NCBI GenBank assembly: GCA_965276825.1
Contig: OZ255630.1
Span: forward strand, 2,812,411 to 2,836,410
Length of the DNA stretch: 24,000 bases
From: Acidimicrobiales bacterium
Lineage (GTDB): Bacteria > Actinomycetota > Acidimicrobiia > Acidimicrobiales > Palsa-688
Reading direction: 5' to 3'
In this document: piece by piece, positions 2,387 through 13,220 of the stretch
Position numbering within the stretch: the first letter of the stretch is position 1
Layout: each line of letters begins with the position of its first letter
Made by a program: the position numbers and the translations under genes
The notes under the pieces: generated by a model
Seen by the model: the letters and a program-made list of their open reading frames with translations, nothing else
Told to the model about the DNA's origin: nothing
Databases searched by the model: none

Positions 2387-2459
2387 CATCAGCTCGCCGC
2401 AGGGTTAGACCCATTTGCGGGACTTCAGCTGCAGTTCCGAGAGCCGAGGGGGACGCCAG

Positions 2460-3515
2460 ATGCCGACCGAAGAGGCTATTCGGGCCGAGGACACACTGGT
2501 CCACGTGCTGTGGATCAACGCCGGTCTGAGCTGCGACGGTGACTCCGTCGCCCTCACGGCGGCCACGCAGCCGAGCATCGAGGAGATCGCGCTCGGCGCT
2601 CTCCCCGGGCTGCCCAAGGTGGCGGTGCACTGGCCGCTGATCGACTTCGAGTGCGGGCCGGCCGGGGGTGCCGATGACTTCCTGGAGTGGTTCTGGAAGG
2701 CCGACCGCGGCGAGCTCGACCCCTTCGTGCTCGTCGTGGAGGGGTCCATCCCCAACGAGAAGCTCCACGAGGAGGGCTACTGGAGTGGGTTCGGCAACGA
2801 TCCCACCACGGGTCAGCCCGTCACCACCAGCGAGTGGCTCGACCGCCTGGCGCCCAAGGCCCTGGCCATCCTGGCCGCGGGCACCTGCGCCACCTACGGC
2901 GGCATCCACGCCATGGCCGGCAACCCGACCGGGGCCATGGGCGTGCCCGACTACCTCGGCTGGTCGTGGAAGTCCAAGGCCGGGCTGCCCATCGTGTGCG
3001 TGCCGGGGTGCCCGGTCCAGCCCGACAACCTGTCCGAGACCATCACCTACCTGCTGTACCAGGCCACCGGCCAGGCGCCCATGATCCCCCTCGACGACGC
3101 CCTCAGGCCGACGTGGCTCTTCGGCGCCACCGTGCACGAGGGCTGCGACCGCGCCGGCTACTACGAGCAGGGCGACTTCGCCACCGAGTACGGATCGCCC
3201 AAGTGCATCGTCAAGCTCGGTTGCTGGGGACCCGTCGTCAAGTGCAACGTGCCCAAGCGCGGCTGGATCAACGGGGTGGGGGGCTGCCCCAACGTGGGCG
3301 GCATCTGCATCGGCTGCACCATGCCCGGCTTCCCCGACAAGTTCATGCCCTTCATGGACGAGCCGCCCGGCGGCCTCGTCTCCACCACCGTCTCCGGGGT
3401 GTACGGCTCGGCCATCCGCTCGCTGCGGAAGGTCACCCAGAAGACGATCGACAAGGAGCCGAAGTGGAGGAAGCCGGGGCGCACGCTCACCACCGGAGCG
3501 ACGCGCACCTGGTAG
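2460..3515 (+). CDS. hhyS: [NiFe]-hydrogenase small subunit, group 1h/5 type, no Tat signal
   Basis: 351 aa, ATG 2460 with GAGGGGGA 6-7 nt upstream. Fe-S cysteine pattern GLSCDGDS, GTCATYGG, VPGCPVQPDN, HEGCDRAGYY, GCWGPVVKCN, GGCPNVGGICIGCTMPGFPD. The N-terminus MPTEEAIRAEDTLVHVLWIN has no RRxFxK twin-arginine leader. Confidence 0.9.
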   Translation: MPTEEAIRAEDTLVHVLWINAGLSCDGDSVALTAATQPSIEEIALGALPGLPKVAVHWPLIDFECGPAGGADDFLEWFWKADRGELDPFVLVVEGSIPNEKLHEEGYWSGFGNDPTTGQPVTTSEWLDRLAPKALAILAAGTCATYGGIHAMAGNPTGAMGVPDYLGWSWKSKAGLPIVCVPGCPVQPDNLSETITYLLYQATGQAPMIPLDDALRPTWLFGATVHEGCDRAGYYEQGDFATEYGSPKCIVKLGCWGPVVKCNVPKRGWINGVGGCPNVGGICIGCTMPGFPDKFMPFMDEPPGGLVSTTVSGVYGSAIRSLRKVTQKTIDKEPKWRKPGRTLTTGATRTW

Positions 3516-3587
3516 GTGCAGACGCCGGGGCGCTCCGCCGCTCCGGCCCCCATCCCAGCCGGACCACCGACGCAGGAAAAAGGACCG

Positions 3588-5384
3588 ATGACCGCGACGC
3601 GCACCTCCCCCAAGAGCCGAGACGACAGCACGGGGTCCAACCTCGTCGACATGTCGTGGGACCCGATCACCCGCATCGTCGGCAGCCTCGGGATCTACAC
3701 CAAGATCGACTTCGACCAGCGGGTCGTGGCCGAGTGCCACAGCACGTCGTCGATCTTCCGCGGGTACTCGATCTTCATGAAGGGCAAGGACCCCCGCGAC
3801 GCCCACTTCATCACCAGCCGCATCTGCGGCATCTGCGGGGACAACCACGCCACCTGCTCCTGCTACGCCCAGAACATGGCCTACGGCGTCAAGCCGCCGC
3901 ACCTCGGTGAGTGGATCGTCAACCTCGGCGAGGCCGCCGAGTACATGTTCGACCACAACATCTACCAGGAGAACCTGGTCGGGGTGGACTACTGCGAGCG
4001 CATGGTGGGCGAGACCAACCCGGGCGTGCTCGAGCGGGCCAACACCACCGAGGCCCCCCACGCCGGCGAGCACGGCTACCGGACCATCGGCGACATCATG
4101 CGCTCGCTCAACCCCTTCAGCGGGGAGTTCTACCGGGAGGCGCTCCAGGTCAGCCGCTCCACCCGGGAGATGTTCTGCCTGATGGAGGGCCGGCACGTCC
4201 ACCCGTCCACCCTCTATCCCGGCGGGGTCGGCACGGTGGCCACCATCCAGCTGATGACCGACTACATCACCCGGCTGATGCGCTACGTCGAGTTCATGAA
4301 GAAGGTCGTCCCCATGCACGACGACCTCTTCGACTTCTTCTACCAGGCCCTCCCTGGCTACGAGCAGGTCGGCTTCCGGCGCACGCTGCTCGGGTGCTGG
4401 GGCGCATTCCAGGACCCCGAGGTCTGCAACTTCAAGTACCAGGACATGACCGAGTGGGGTCGCAAGATGTACGTGACCCCCGGCGTGGTGGTGGACGGCA
4501 AGCTCGTCACCACCGACCTCGTCGACATCAACCTGGGCATCCGGATCCTCCTCGGCAGCTCGTACTACGACGACTGGGAAGACCGGGAGATGTTCGTCAC
4601 CCGGGATCCTCTCGGCAACCCGGTCGACCGTCGCCACCCGTGGAACCAGCACACCAACCCCCGTCCCCAGAAGCGGGACATGGACGACAAGTACTCCTGG
4701 GTCATGTCCCCGCGGTGGTTCGACGGCAAGGACTACCTGGCCCTCGACACCGGGGGCGGCCCCATCGCCCGGCTGTGGACCACCGCCCTGGCCGGGCTGG
4801 TCGACATCGGCTACGTGAAGGCCACCGGGACCAGCGTGCAGATCAACCTGCCGAAGACGGCGCTCAAGGGCCCCGCCACCCTGGAGTGGAAGATCCCCGA
4901 GTGGAGCAACGCCATCGAGCGCAACCGGGCCAGGACCTACTTCCAGGCATACGCGGCGGCCTGCGCGCTGCACTTCGCCGAGAAGGCGCTGGAGGAGATC
5001 CGGGCCGGGCGGACCAAGACGTGGGAGAGCTTCGAGGTGCCCGAGGAAGGGGTGGGCTGCGGCTTCACCGAGGCGGTGCGCGGGGTGCTGTCGCACCACA
5101 TGGTCATCCGGGACGGCAAGATCGCCAACTACCACCCGTACCCGCCGACGCCGTGGAACGCCAGCCCTCGCGACAGCTACGGGACGCCGGGGCCCTACGA
5201 GGACGCCGTGCAGGGCACTCCGATCTTCGAGGAGAACGACCGGGAGCACTTCAAGGGCATCGACATCATGCGCACCGTGCGCAGCTTCGACCCCTGCCTG
5301 CCCTGTGGCGTGCACATGTACCTCGGCGAGGGCAAAAGCCTGGAGACGCTGCACTCGCCGACGCAGTCCGCCGGCACCGCGTGA
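3588..5384 (+). CDS. hhyL: [NiFe]-hydrogenase large (catalytic) subunit, group 1h/5 type
   Basis: 598 aa, ATG 3588 preceded by AGGAAAAAGGA. N-terminal metal-binding motif TSRICGICGDNH (~3819-3848). C-terminal SFDPCLPCGVH (~5289-5315) followed by a 22-aa extension, the substrate for the maturation protease. Confidence 0.95.
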   Translation: MTATRTSPKSRDDSTGSNLVDMSWDPITRIVGSLGIYTKIDFDQRVVAECHSTSSIFRGYSIFMKGKDPRDAHFITSRICGICGDNHATCSCYAQNMAYGVKPPHLGEWIVNLGEAAEYMFDHNIYQENLVGVDYCERMVGETNPGVLERANTTEAPHAGEHGYRTIGDIMRSLNPFSGEFYREALQVSRSTREMFCLMEGRHVHPSTLYPGGVGTVATIQLMTDYITRLMRYVEFMKKVVPMHDDLFDFFYQALPGYEQVGFRRTLLGCWGAFQDPEVCNFKYQDMTEWGRKMYVTPGVVVDGKLVTTDLVDINLGIRILLGSSYYDDWEDREMFVTRDPLGNPVDRRHPWNQHTNPRPQKRDMDDKYSWVMSPRWFDGKDYLALDTGGGPIARLWTTALAGLVDIGYVKATGTSVQINLPKTALKGPATLEWKIPEWSNAIERNRARTYFQAYAAACALHFAEKALEEIRAGRTKTWESFEVPEEGVGCGFTEAVRGVLSHHMVIRDGKIANYHPYPPTPWNASPRDSYGTPGPYEDAVQGTPIFEENDREHFKGIDIMRTVRSFDPCLPCGVHMYLGEGKSLETLHSPTQSAGTA

Positions 5385-9278: not shown

Positions 9279-9814
9279 CGGCGTCGGTGCACCCGTCGCG
9301 GACCCTGGTCGCCGGCGTCGGGAACATCTTCCTGAGCGACGACGGCTTCGGGTCCGAGGTGGCCCGACGTCTGTCCGGTTGCGCGGTGCCACCCGGTGTC
9401 AGCGTGACCGACTACGGCATCCGGGGCACCCACCTGGCCTACGACCTGCTGGCGGGCTACGACGCCCTGGTCCTCGTCGACACGGTCCCCGCCCGGGGGG
9501 AGGCCGGCCGCCTGCACGTCATCCAGGTCGAGGCCGACGACGTCGACGGCTCGGCCTTCGACCCCCACGGGATGGACCCCAACTCGATGCTGGCCAGCCT
9601 GCGCTCGCTCGGCGGGGTCCCCCCGCCGACCGTCGTCGTCGGCTGCGAGCCCGCCGTGCTCGACGAGGGCATCGGGCTCTCACCCGAGGTGAGCGACGCC
9701 GTCGGGCTCGCCGTCACCACGGTGCTCCGGCTGGTCGGCGCACCATCACCCGCACCGGGGACGATCCCCGGGAGAGGAGGACCGACATGTGCCTCGGCAT
9801 CCCCGGTCGAGTGA
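9275..9814 (+). CDS. Hydrogenase maturation endopeptidase (HyaD/HybD/HupD family)
   Basis: 179 aa. LVAGVGNIFLSDDGFGSEVA (GxGNxxxxDDGxG), LVLVD and FDPHGM supply the conserved Asp/Asp/His metal ligands of the family. The partner large subunit has a C-terminal extension. Confidence 0.85.
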   Translation: MTASVHPSRTLVAGVGNIFLSDDGFGSEVARRLSGCAVPPGVSVTDYGIRGTHLAYDLLAGYDALVLVDTVPARGEAGRLHVIQVEADDVDGSAFDPHGMDPNSMLASLRSLGGVPPPTVVVGCEPAVLDEGIGLSPEVSDAVGLAVTTVLRLVGAPSPAPGTIPGRGGPTCASASPVE

Positions 9815-10044
9815 CCGAGCTGGTCGCCGGCTACCACGACCAGATCGCCATGGTCGACGTGGTCGGGGCCACCCGCCAGATCAACGTCGGCATGCTGGAG
9901 CAGCCCGTCAGGCCGGGCGACTGGGTGATGATCCACCTCGGCTTCGCCGTGGAGGTGGTCGACCAGGCCGAGGCCGAGCGGGCCCTCTCCGGCCTCGAGA
10001 TGATGGGCCGTCCGAGACGGGACGAGCCCCAGGCCAGCGTGTGA
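9787..10044 (+). CDS. hypC: Hydrogenase assembly chaperone HypC/HupF family, copy 1
   Basis: 85 aa. ATG 9787 preceded by GGGAGAGGAGGA. N-terminal MCLGIPGRV with the essential Cys2. Overlaps the protease gene 3' end by 28 nt. Confidence 0.85.
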   Translation: MCLGIPGRVTELVAGYHDQIAMVDVVGATRQINVGMLEQPVRPGDWVMIHLGFAVEVVDQAEAERALSGLEMMGRPRRDEPQASV

Positions 10045-10820
10045 GCGCGCCCGCTGGCTCGATCCGCCCCTCCCCCCCGGCCGGCGACGTGCTCTTCGCC
10101 CGCTACGCCTACCCACCCAACCAGCTGGGCTACTGCGGACCCGGCGACGGGCGCGAGCTGCTCGAGCTGGCCGCGGGGGTCGGTGACGACGACGTCGCGG
10201 CGCGGGCCCCCCGCTTCGACGGGGCCTGGCCGTACCTCGAGGTCATCGCCTCGTCGACGGGCATCGACGACCCGCTCGACCCTCGCGTGGTGGAGGCCTA
10301 CTGGCTGGGCAGCGACCTGCTCGACGCCGTCGACGCGCGCGCATTCGCCGACATGGCCCGGCGAGCGTTTGCCGGCCAGGTCGGCGCGGAGTGGCACTGC
10401 CTCGACCCCTCCCAGCCGGTGCCGCCGACCCCGCACCACAGCTTCCACGTCCTCGCCATCTATCCGTGGATGGGCCTGCTCAGGTCGGGTCGGGGGGGAC
10501 CCGCCCTCACCGTCCTCGACCGGTGCCGCATCCGCTGGGGCCAGATCGTGACCGTCGGCCGGGAGCACGTGGAGGTGCGGAGCCAGCCCCTCACCTGGGA
10601 CGGACAGGTGCTCGGTCTGGGCGAGGAGCAGGTCGAGACGGCGCGGTGGGCCGACGCCGGCCGGTCGCTCTCGGCGCCAGTGGCGCCCGGTGAGTGGGTG
10701 TCGCTGCACTGGGACTGGGTGTGCGACCGGCTGACCCCGACCCAGCTCGACCATCTGCGCCACTTCACCGCCCGCCAGCTCGACCTGACCAACCGGACCG
10801 TGGCCACCGACCCCCGATGA
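10041..10820 (+). CDS. Hydrogenase-cluster conserved protein of unknown function
   Basis: 259 aa. GTG 10041 overlaps the hypC TGA (GTGA). FARYAYPPNQLGYCGPGDGRELLELAAG...HHSFHVLAIYPWMGLL...WVSLHWDWVCDRL. High GC3. No catalytic motif recognised. Confidence 0.7.
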   Translation: MSAPAGSIRPSPPAGDVLFARYAYPPNQLGYCGPGDGRELLELAAGVGDDDVAARAPRFDGAWPYLEVIASSTGIDDPLDPRVVEAYWLGSDLLDAVDARAFADMARRAFAGQVGAEWHCLDPSQPVPPTPHHSFHVLAIYPWMGLLRSGRGGPALTVLDRCRIRWGQIVTVGREHVEVRSQPLTWDGQVLGLGEEQVETARWADAGRSLSAPVAPGEWVSLHWDWVCDRLTPTQLDHLRHFTARQLDLTNRTVATDPR

Positions 10821-10871
10821 CCAGCGACCCGCGATGACCGCCGACCCGCGATGATCAGCGACCTCCCGACC
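10804..10871 (+). repeat. 17-bp tandem repeat x3 (plus a diverged 4th unit) spanning the stop/start junction in front of hypF
   Basis: Units are ccaccgacccccgATGA (10804-10820), ccagcgacccgcgATGA (10821-10837) and ccgccgacccgcgATGA (10838-10854). A diverged unit tcagcgacctcccgacc follows at 10855-10871. Each unit ends in an ATGA overlap. Confidence 0.9.
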
Positions 10872-13220
10872 GCGGGCACCCGCGCCGCGGTGCGCGTCCG
10901 GGTCACCGGGGTGGTCCAGGGGGTCGGCTTCCGTCCGTTCGTGCACCGCCTGGCCACCGAGCTCGGCCTCGACGGCACGGTGGGCAACGACACCAGCAGC
11001 GTGTTCGCCGAGCTCGAGGGCCCCGCCGCCCAGCTCGAGGCCTTCGTCGCCCGGCTGGGCGCCGAGGCCCCCCCGCTGGCGGCCATCGAGGCCGTGGAGG
11101 TGACGGACGCGGTGCCGGCGGGCCGGAGCGGCTTCCGGATCGTCGAGAGCCGCCCGGGCTCGGGTGCGGTGACACTGGTGTCGCCCGACATCGCGGTGTG
11201 CGACGCCTGCCTGGCCGAGATGCGGGACCCGACCAACCGCAGGTACCTCCATCCGTTCATCACCTGCACCGACTGCGGACCTCGTTTCACCATCACCCGG
11301 CGCCTGCCCTACGACCGCCCCGACACCACCATGCGGGGCTTTTCCCTCTGCTCCTCCTGCCGCGCCGAGTACGACGACCCGGCCGACCGGCGCTACCACG
11401 CCCAGCCCATCGGCTGCCACGACTGCGGGCCGGTGCTCACCTTCCGGCTCGGTGACGGGCCGACCTCCCGGCGGGGAGCGGCGCTCGACGCCGCCCGCCA
11501 CGCCCTGCGCAGCGGATCCATCCTCGCCGTCAAAGGCGTCGGCGGCTACCACCTGGTGTGCGACGCCACGTCGGACGCGGCGGTGGCGGAGCTGCGGCGC
11601 CGCAAGGGCCGCGCCGACAAGCCCCTGGCGGTGATGTGCGCCGATCTCCGCACCGCCGCCCAGCTGGGCGAGCTCGGAGACGACGAGATCGGTTGGCTGC
11701 GCTCACCGGCCCGTCCCATCGTGCTCGTCCGTGCCCGCCCCGGCGGGAGCCTGTCGCCGCTGGTGGCGCCGGGCAACCCGCTCGTCGGGCTGGTGCTGCC
11801 CTACACGCCGCTGCACCATCTGCTGTTCTCCGGCGCGGCGCCCGACGGAGCCGCCACAGCCGACGGAGCCGCGGCGCTCGACGGTGGAGAGGCGGCCCTC
11901 GGCCCGTTGGTGGTGACGAGCAGCAACCCGAGCGGCGAGCCCATCTGCTACCGCGACGACGGGCTGCTCGAGCGGATCGGCCACCTGGTCGACGGCGTGC
12001 TCGCCCACGACCGGCCCATCCACGTGCCCTGCGACGACTCAGTGGTGCGGGTCGCCGACGGCCGGCTCCTCCCGGTCCGTCGCTCCCGCGGCTACGCCCC
12101 CCTCCCGGTGCGCGTCCGGCCGTCCCCGCTCGACGTGCTGGCCGTCGGGGCCGAGCTCAAGAGTGCCTTCTGCGTGGCCACCGGCGAGTGGGCCTGGATG
12201 AGCCAGCACATCGGCGACATGGGCAACATCGAGACCCTCGACGCCTTCGAGCGGTCGGTCCGCCAGTTCTGCGAGCTGTACCGCGTGGAGCCGGCCGTCG
12301 TCGCCGTCGACTCCCATCCCGGTTACCTCAGCTCCCGGTGGGCCAGGTCCCGCTACCCCCACGCCGTCGTCGAGGTGCAGCACCACCACGCCCATGTCGC
12401 CTCGGTGATGGCCGAGCACGGCCTCGACCCCGACCGCGAGGTGATCGGCGTCGCCTTCGACGGCACCGGATACGGCGACGACGGCACGATCTGGGGTGGC
12501 GAGGTCCTCGAGGCGACCGCCGGCGGGTACCGCCGGGCCGCCCACCTGACCGCTGTGCCCCTCCCCGGCGGCGACGCCGCGGTCCGCCATCCCTGGCGCG
12601 TCGCCCTCAGCCATCTGCGCTCGGCCGGCGTCGCGTGGACACAAGACCTGCCACCCGTCCGCCAGGCCGGCGAGGTCGAGCTCGGGGTGCTGGCCCGACA
12701 GCTGTCGACGGGACTGGCCTGCGTGGCGACGACCAGCATGGGCAGGCTCTTCGACGCCGTCGCCTCGCTGCTCGGGCTCCGCCACGACGTCACGTACGAG
12801 GCCCAGGCGGCCATCGAGCTCGAGCACGTCGCCGCCGGCCACCTCGACGACGCCCCGGCCCTGGGCTTCGACGCGGGCAGGGACGGCGCCTACGACGCCG
12901 CCCCGGTGATCGCCGGGCTGGTCGCGGCGCGCCGGGGAGGGTCCACGGTCGGGGCGGCCGCCGCCGGGTTCCACCTCGCCGTCGCCGACCTGGTCGGGCG
13001 CGCCGCGGTGGCCAGCCGGGCGCGGACGGGCTCGTCGACGGTGGTCCTCTCCGGCGGCGTCTGGCAGAACACGCTGCTGAGCGGGCTGGCCGAGCGCCGC
13101 CTGCGCCACGATGGCTTCGAGGTCCTCACCCACCGGCTGGTGCCGCCCAACGACGGTGGCCTGGCCCTCGGTCAGTTGTACATTGCGGCTCACGGAGCCA
13201 CACCGACGAAGGAGGCCTGA
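10851..13220 (+). CDS. hypF: Carbamoyltransferase HypF
   Basis: 789 aa. Acylphosphatase-like N-terminus (VRVRVTGVVQGVGFRPFV). Two zinc-finger pairs (CDACLAEMRDPTNRRYLHPFITCTDCGPRFT and CSSCRAEYDDPADRRYHAQPIGCHDCGP). YrdC-like segment (LAVKGVGGYHLVCD) and a Kae1-like C-terminal domain. Confidence 0.95.
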   Translation: MISDLPTAGTRAAVRVRVTGVVQGVGFRPFVHRLATELGLDGTVGNDTSSVFAELEGPAAQLEAFVARLGAEAPPLAAIEAVEVTDAVPAGRSGFRIVESRPGSGAVTLVSPDIAVCDACLAEMRDPTNRRYLHPFITCTDCGPRFTITRRLPYDRPDTTMRGFSLCSSCRAEYDDPADRRYHAQPIGCHDCGPVLTFRLGDGPTSRRGAALDAARHALRSGSILAVKGVGGYHLVCDATSDAAVAELRRRKGRADKPLAVMCADLRTAAQLGELGDDEIGWLRSPARPIVLVRARPGGSLSPLVAPGNPLVGLVLPYTPLHHLLFSGAAPDGAATADGAAALDGGEAALGPLVVTSSNPSGEPICYRDDGLLERIGHLVDGVLAHDRPIHVPCDDSVVRVADGRLLPVRRSRGYAPLPVRVRPSPLDVLAVGAELKSAFCVATGEWAWMSQHIGDMGNIETLDAFERSVRQFCELYRVEPAVVAVDSHPGYLSSRWARSRYPHAVVEVQHHHAHVASVMAEHGLDPDREVIGVAFDGTGYGDDGTIWGGEVLEATAGGYRRAAHLTAVPLPGGDAAVRHPWRVALSHLRSAGVAWTQDLPPVRQAGEVELGVLARQLSTGLACVATTSMGRLFDAVASLLGLRHDVTYEAQAAIELEHVAAGHLDDAPALGFDAGRDGAYDAAPVIAGLVAARRGGSTVGAAAAGFHLAVADLVGRAAVASRARTGSSTVVLSGGVWQNTLLSGLAERRLRHDGFEVLTHRLVPPNDGGLALGQLYIAAHGATPTKEA

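Follow-up and report, generated by a model that had tools for sequence, protein, structure and literature searches.

The window, defined here as the whole 24,000-nt stretch of DNA under study, is a group-1h-type [NiFe]-hydrogenase locus in which the small and the large subunit are encoded at positions 2409-3515 and 3516-5384, respectively. The junction described here involves three consecutive genes on the forward strand. The first, a hypC-like gene (9787-10044), was assigned from a PF01455 match and from a codon-usage gene map, and its stop codon overlaps the start of the second gene in a GTGA at 10041. This second gene (10041-10820), also found in the gene map, encodes a DUF6390 protein of 259 amino acids (PF19927, E-value 5.7e-94), which has orthologues at the related loci L142, L145, L144 and L148. 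The C-terminus of this protein reads TVATDPR and is followed by a TGA stop codon at 10818-10820. The third gene, hypF (10851-13220), encodes 789 amino acids starting with MISDLPT and comprises the five HypF Pfam domains, with the acylphosphatase domain beginning at residue 15. According to the codon-usage gene map, hypC, hypD and hypE lie downstream of hypF.

The DUF6390 gene and hypF are connected by a tandem array with a 17-nt unit at positions 10804-10871. Tandem Repeats Finder (TRF) describes it with a period of 17, 3.8 copies and a score of 81 (10804-10869). The array can be divided into four units on the forward strand, U1 (10804-10820, CCACCGACCCCCGATGA), U2 (10821-10837, CCAGCGACCCGCGATGA), U3 (10838-10854, CCGCCGACCCGCGATGA) and U4 (10855-10871, TCAGCGACCTCCCGACC). 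Units U1, U2 and U3 differ from each other at 2 of 17 bases in each pairwise comparison. U4 is diverged, with 9 of 17 positions identical to U2, eight of which fall within the first nine. Furthermore, when the array is read in the phase of the ATG codons, a diverged unit 0 precedes it at 10800-10816 (forward strand, GTGGCCACCGACCCCCG); it matches the next unit at 13 of 17 positions and codes for the final residues of DUF6390. TRF also detects other tandem repeats in the window, namely a 70-nt repeat in two intergenic copies (260-396), a 15/30-nt array (1646-1725) and a 9/18-nt array inside hypF (11834-11884).

An ATGA is found at 10817, 10834 and 10851, and these three successive 4-nt stop/start overlaps link the DUF6390 stop, two ORFs of six codons and the hypF start. 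The first mini-ORF (10817-10837, forward strand) encodes MTSDPR; its ATG lies on the DUF6390 TGA, and its own TGA (10835-10837) lies on the next ATG. The second (10834-10854, forward strand) encodes MTADPR and terminates with a TGA (10852-10854) on the hypF ATG. Neither has a plausible protein function. The first-pass annotation had described this chain of 17-bp units with ATGA stop/start junctions, the two mini-ORFs and the hypF start at 10851, and both direct reading of the sequence and TRF agree with it. The relay is unbroken because the 17-nt unit, which is one nucleotide short of 18, carries ATGA. Its being in frame is no additional coincidence, since any tandem unit that bears an ATGA and has a length of 2 modulo 3 yields such a relay. 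The three variable positions would spare every ATGA with a chance of about 0.4, so that the intact ATGAs are weak evidence. The further claim of the annotation, that gain or loss of units never breaks the coupling, is true by construction, as each unit has its own ATGA and a length of 2 modulo 3.

The three steps of -1 sum to zero, and consequently the DUF6390 gene and hypF are in one reading frame, separated by the TGA and ten sense codons (10041-13220). A DUF6390-HypF fusion made by readthrough was considered and rejected, as the orthologous genes are offset by -1 and no such fusion was seen. P0062, a long homologue of HypF, lacks a DUF6390 domain, and the extension at its N-terminus is unrelated.

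In the real genome, 533 arrays reach a TRF score of at least 80, compared with 0 and 2 in two random genomes (4.1 Mb) generated with an order-3 Markov model. Scores this high are thus scarce in random sequence, and the repeat is real and beyond chance. That it is an artefact of assembly or sequencing is very improbable. Such a reading draws on nothing beyond the general trouble that assemblers have with repeats, and against it the genome is a single contig of 4.12 Mb, the units have diverged from one another, and the flanking genes are both intact and of orthologous length.

Searches for DUF6390 covered 41 relatives, 401 genomes from the class and further genome contigs. The best DUF6390 match is 66% identical. 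In these searches hypF is usually not the next gene, and it was found directly downstream only in L087, a locus from a MAG, in which DUF6390 and its TGA are followed by 5 nt and then by the GTG of hypF. A search with the HypF protein gave homologues that are 66-75% identical and are labelled Acidimicrobiales by their sources, and their contigs supplied ten more junctions. The DUF6390-hypF junctions among them are GTGA in L142, ATGA in L145, GTGA in L144 and TGATG in L148, and the junctions between an NHL-like gene and hypF are ATGA in L140, L141 and L143 and GTGA in L146, L147 and L149. The hypF start thus overlaps the upstream stop at 10 of 11 related loci, with a gap of 5 nt at the remaining one, which suggests that coupled translation of hypF is the norm in the clade. 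In these nearest homologues (L140-L149), hypF directly follows DUF6390 at some loci and the NHL-like gene of about 370 amino acids at the others, always with a stop/start overlap; as this partner varies, the placement of hypF in the hydrogenase locus is fluid in the clade.

TRF finds a junction array at none of the 11 related hypF loci, and the window alone has one. L142 has the gene order of the window, namely protease, hypC, DUF6390, hypF, hypC, hypD and hypE. The DUF6390 tail past a conserved TNR is 7 amino acids long in both, and the lengths of the DUF6390 tail and of the HypF N-terminus in the window equal those of the orthologues in L142, L145, L144 and L148. Neither the DUF6390 protein nor HypF is altered by the array. 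With the repeat missing from the 11 related loci, the array can be described as two units (34 nt) gained in this lineage on an ancestral single overlap. The first-pass annotation had proposed that the coupling junction was duplicated serially, and this is borne out by the orthologous DUF6390-hypF junctions, which are single and free of repeats, and by the equal lengths of the flanking proteins. A close strain was absent from the collections, in which the top HypF match is 75% identical, and a 21-mer scan of metagenome contigs for a near-identical strain returned just four chance matches in unrelated genes.

We consider it likely that the array arose when an overlapping stop/start junction was duplicated in tandem within this lineage, and that it is near-neutral and tolerated since its length preserves the hand-over of ribosomes. 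Ancestrally, the DUF6390 gene and hypF would have shared a single NTGA overlap, into which replication slippage would have inserted two 17-nt copies of the junction (34 nt). Slippage was probably seeded by two similar words already present 17 nt apart, CCACCGACC and TCAGCGACC. A first slippage event between them would give TCAGCGACCCCCGATGA, from which the observed middle units differ at 2 and 4 bases, two of these differences being common to both units. These mismatches suggest that duplication took place in at least two rounds and that a few substitutions came later. Moreover, the divergence of the units at 2 of 17 bases indicates that the duplications are not very recent.

The unit is of local origin and is neither mobile nor dispersed. 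When up to 3 mismatches are allowed, each unit has fewer matches in the genome than in a random genome from a Markov model, and a genome search with the junction region gave a single other match, a weak one outside the repeat. Two dispersed families, with lengths of 65 and 68 nt, do occur in the genome; membership in them was rejected, as their nhmmer profiles miss the junction. The 65-nt family has 19 nhmmer matches and a MIRU-like look, with a GTGA on the upstream stop and an ATGA or GTGA on the next start. Its copies have a hairpin ahead of the 3' end and are sometimes in tandem; examples outside the window are found at contig positions 490600-490668 (-), 1739419-1739487 (-), 2259253-2259386 (+), 2537589-2537722 (+) and 3551454-3551522 (+). 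Elsewhere, about 27 matches, including arrays with a spacing of 65 nt, are found in G014, which belongs to another genus of the same family, and a few in G001, G007 and G016. The second family, of 68 nt, has 16 nhmmer matches and an equal GTGA...ATGA bridging layout, with examples, also outside the window, at contig positions 799136-799207 (+), 824717-824788 (-), 1189385-1189456 (-), 1214222-1214293 (-), 2486379-2486450 (-) and 3639267-3639338 (+). One copy of it, with 89% identity, is present in the relative G011.

Junctions like that of hypF were then surveyed in the whole genome with a home-made codon-usage gene map. A 4-nt overlap is present in 506 of 2483 co-directional pairs of neighbouring genes. 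NTGA-to-NTGA chains that connect coding-like ORFs were also scanned for; the bridge is a single mini-ORF at 95 junctions and two or more mini-ORFs at 11. Besides the hypF array, about 16 junction duplications have a frame-closing length. Relays were found between ruvA and ruvB (contig positions 955404-955435, two copies of 17 nt), between a sensor kinase and a response regulator (3361028-3361217, six copies of 32 nt), at 1944219-1944267 and 2809906-2809954 (three copies of 17 nt each) and at 2372331-2372356 (two copies of 14 nt). The relays with three copies of 17 nt include one at a leuA-like gene and one at a gene pair that lies 2.5 kb left of the window. The sequences of the units in the other relays are unrelated to the hypF array. 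A special role of period 17, which occurs in 4 of about 9 relays, was rejected, as this period is also common among all arrays whose period is indivisible by three and the difference is not significant.

Arrays that copy a predicted gene stop were divided according to whether a start codon overlaps the copied stop. With an overlapping start, the periods of 0, 1 and 2 modulo 3 number 7, 3 and 16, respectively, and without one they number 20, 19 and 18. A period of 2 modulo 3 is thus found in 16 of 26 arrays in the first class and in 18 of 57 in the second (Fisher test of 2 modulo 3 against the rest, p=0.016). This excess of frame-closing lengths is confined to stops that are overlapped by a start, a pattern indicative of selection for ribosome hand-over. 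A mutational bias in phase was tried as its cause and rejected. Exact microhomologies flanking NTGA at the 506 intact junctions are at a distance of 2 modulo 3 in 37%, 35%, 29% and 19% of cases (k=5, 6, 7 and 8, respectively), and this distribution is too flat to yield 62%. The near-flat phases make it more likely that the length bias reflects a selective filter for ribosome hand-over, for which the evidence, from small counts and from the home-made gene map, is suggestive.

At the hypF junction, each copy of the unit is predicted to behave as a self-contained ORF of six codons, the stop of which overlaps the following start. Ribosomes that end translation of DUF6390 would reinitiate at 10817, 10834 and 10851 in turn and so reach hypF. 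The array would survive because its length leaves this hand-over intact, and it would at most lower the output of hypF somewhat; such a modest drop is possible. We infer that the mini-ORFs are translated and that hypF depends on the hand-over. No Shine-Dalgarno core is present ahead of the ATG at 10817, 10834 or 10851. This absence was rejected as an argument for obligatory coupling, because about 70% of the predicted starts in the genome, from crude start calls, also lack the core, and it is therefore not discriminating. A terminator pattern was not found at the junction.

Alternatively, the mini-ORFs could be irrelevant, with hypF initiating de novo at ATG 10851 or at the in-frame GTG at 10890, and with the duplication serving as a neutral spacer. 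Most predicted starts of the genome are without a Shine-Dalgarno core, which makes initiation independent of such a sequence common, and GTG 10890 is located just ahead of the acylphosphatase strand. However, the alignment of the orthologous HypF N-termini fits a start at 10851 but not one at 10890. Orthologous hypF genes that start elsewhere with an RBS of their own, which the first-pass annotation had named as grounds against its reading, were not seen, and the orthologue starts sit at the junction. The overlap at nearly all orthologous starts also argues for coupling, and the bias to frame-closing lengths is seen specifically where a start overlaps the copied stop. In addition, no promoter-like site was found in 10400-11000, a search that is a weak test for this phylum. 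Initiation of hypF de novo is thus rather improbable.

In line with the damping or metering of hypF that the first-pass annotation had suggested, the array could also be viewed as an adaptive attenuator, in which every added step of termination and reinitiation sheds ribosomes and the copy number sets a low ratio of HypF to DUF6390 that is kept by selection. HypF is a catalytic maturation enzyme and is plausibly needed at a low level. The chain has stayed unbroken despite substitutions at 2 of 17 bases between units. The efficiency of coupling is known to depend on context (PMC12548453), which would also favor an attenuator. However, the array is missing from all 11 related hypF junctions, and it is thus not a conserved regulatory device. 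Similar arrays at unrelated junctions, for example ruvA-ruvB, favor a general mutational process over a device specific to hypF. Furthermore, the RNA at 10780-10940 is no more stable than its shuffled versions (z = -0.69), and so a signal of RNA structure is absent. An adaptive attenuator is therefore an unlikely explanation. A regulatory leader peptide or uORF attenuator was likewise rejected from the same fold score, from the absence of an Rfam match at the junction and from the absence of the array at the 11 related loci.

As a single locus, the array has little weight by itself, with the proteins unchanged and the array not conserved, and the modest interest of the hypF array stems mainly from the genome-wide length bias. 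The array provides a clear example, dated by orthologues, of how short duplications of a stop/start overlap persist when their length lets ribosomes pass between genes. The length bias at start-overlapped junctions provides indirect in vivo evidence of selection on translational coupling. The locus is also a simple natural construct, with 0, 1, 2 or 3 relay steps, in which the efficiency of termination-reinitiation could be measured. A broader reading, which we put forward tentatively and hold to be possible but on balance doubtful, is that selection keeps frame-closing junction duplications throughout the genome, and that hand-over at overlaps is the main route of translation for downstream operon genes such as hypF in this Acidimicrobiales lineage. 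If true, local relay minisatellites would offer a natural series of copy numbers from which reinitiation efficiency could be measured, and they may be the raw material of dispersed MIRU-like elements, among them the two families (65 and 68 nt) of this genome.

Three known systems can be compared with the hypF array. Like phase-variable contingency loci, it is made of short tandem repeats that are able to change copy number by slippage. However, in those loci a change in copy number flips a frame or a promoter on or off, whereas the hypF array keeps the hand-over at every copy number. Such a change cannot break the chain, and the array therefore cannot be an on/off switch; its assignment as a contingency locus was rejected. 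Ordinary gene pairs with an NTGA overlap are translationally coupled by termination-reinitiation or by ribosome scanning (PMC12548453). The hypF junction has the co-directional genes and the 4-nt stop/start overlap of these pairs, and each of its three junctions is a standard -4 overlap, as at the orthologous hypF junctions; it differs in that three overlaps are chained through two ORFs of six codons.

The closest resemblance in design is to the MIRUs of mycobacteria. In the part of PMC12548453 that cites Supply et al. 1997, MIRUs are described as inserting at start codons, with an ORF within the unit that is coupled to the gene at a spacing of -4, and the intergenic region of senX3-regX3 has MIRUs of 77 bp and 53 bp (PMC4213456). 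The first-pass annotation knew of no described example of a chained junction. This claim did not stand, as mycobacterial MIRU arrays have exactly such a design, in PMC4213456 and in the above part of PMC12548453. In both systems, tandem units are located at a gene start inside an operon, with a small ORF in each unit and coupling through a 4-nt overlap. Moreover, the unit lengths are 2 modulo 3 in both (77 and 53 bp there and 17 nt here), so that the chain is kept at any copy number. In contrast, MIRUs are dispersed and apparently mobile elements of about 50-100 bp in Mycobacterium, while the hypF unit is 17 nt long, local and carried by an Acidimicrobiales-like host, and the array falls outside the MIRUs in dispersal, unit size and host. 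Apart from these three differences, the hypF array repeats the known MIRU design on a small scale and with a locally generated unit, and it is not a new kind of regulator.
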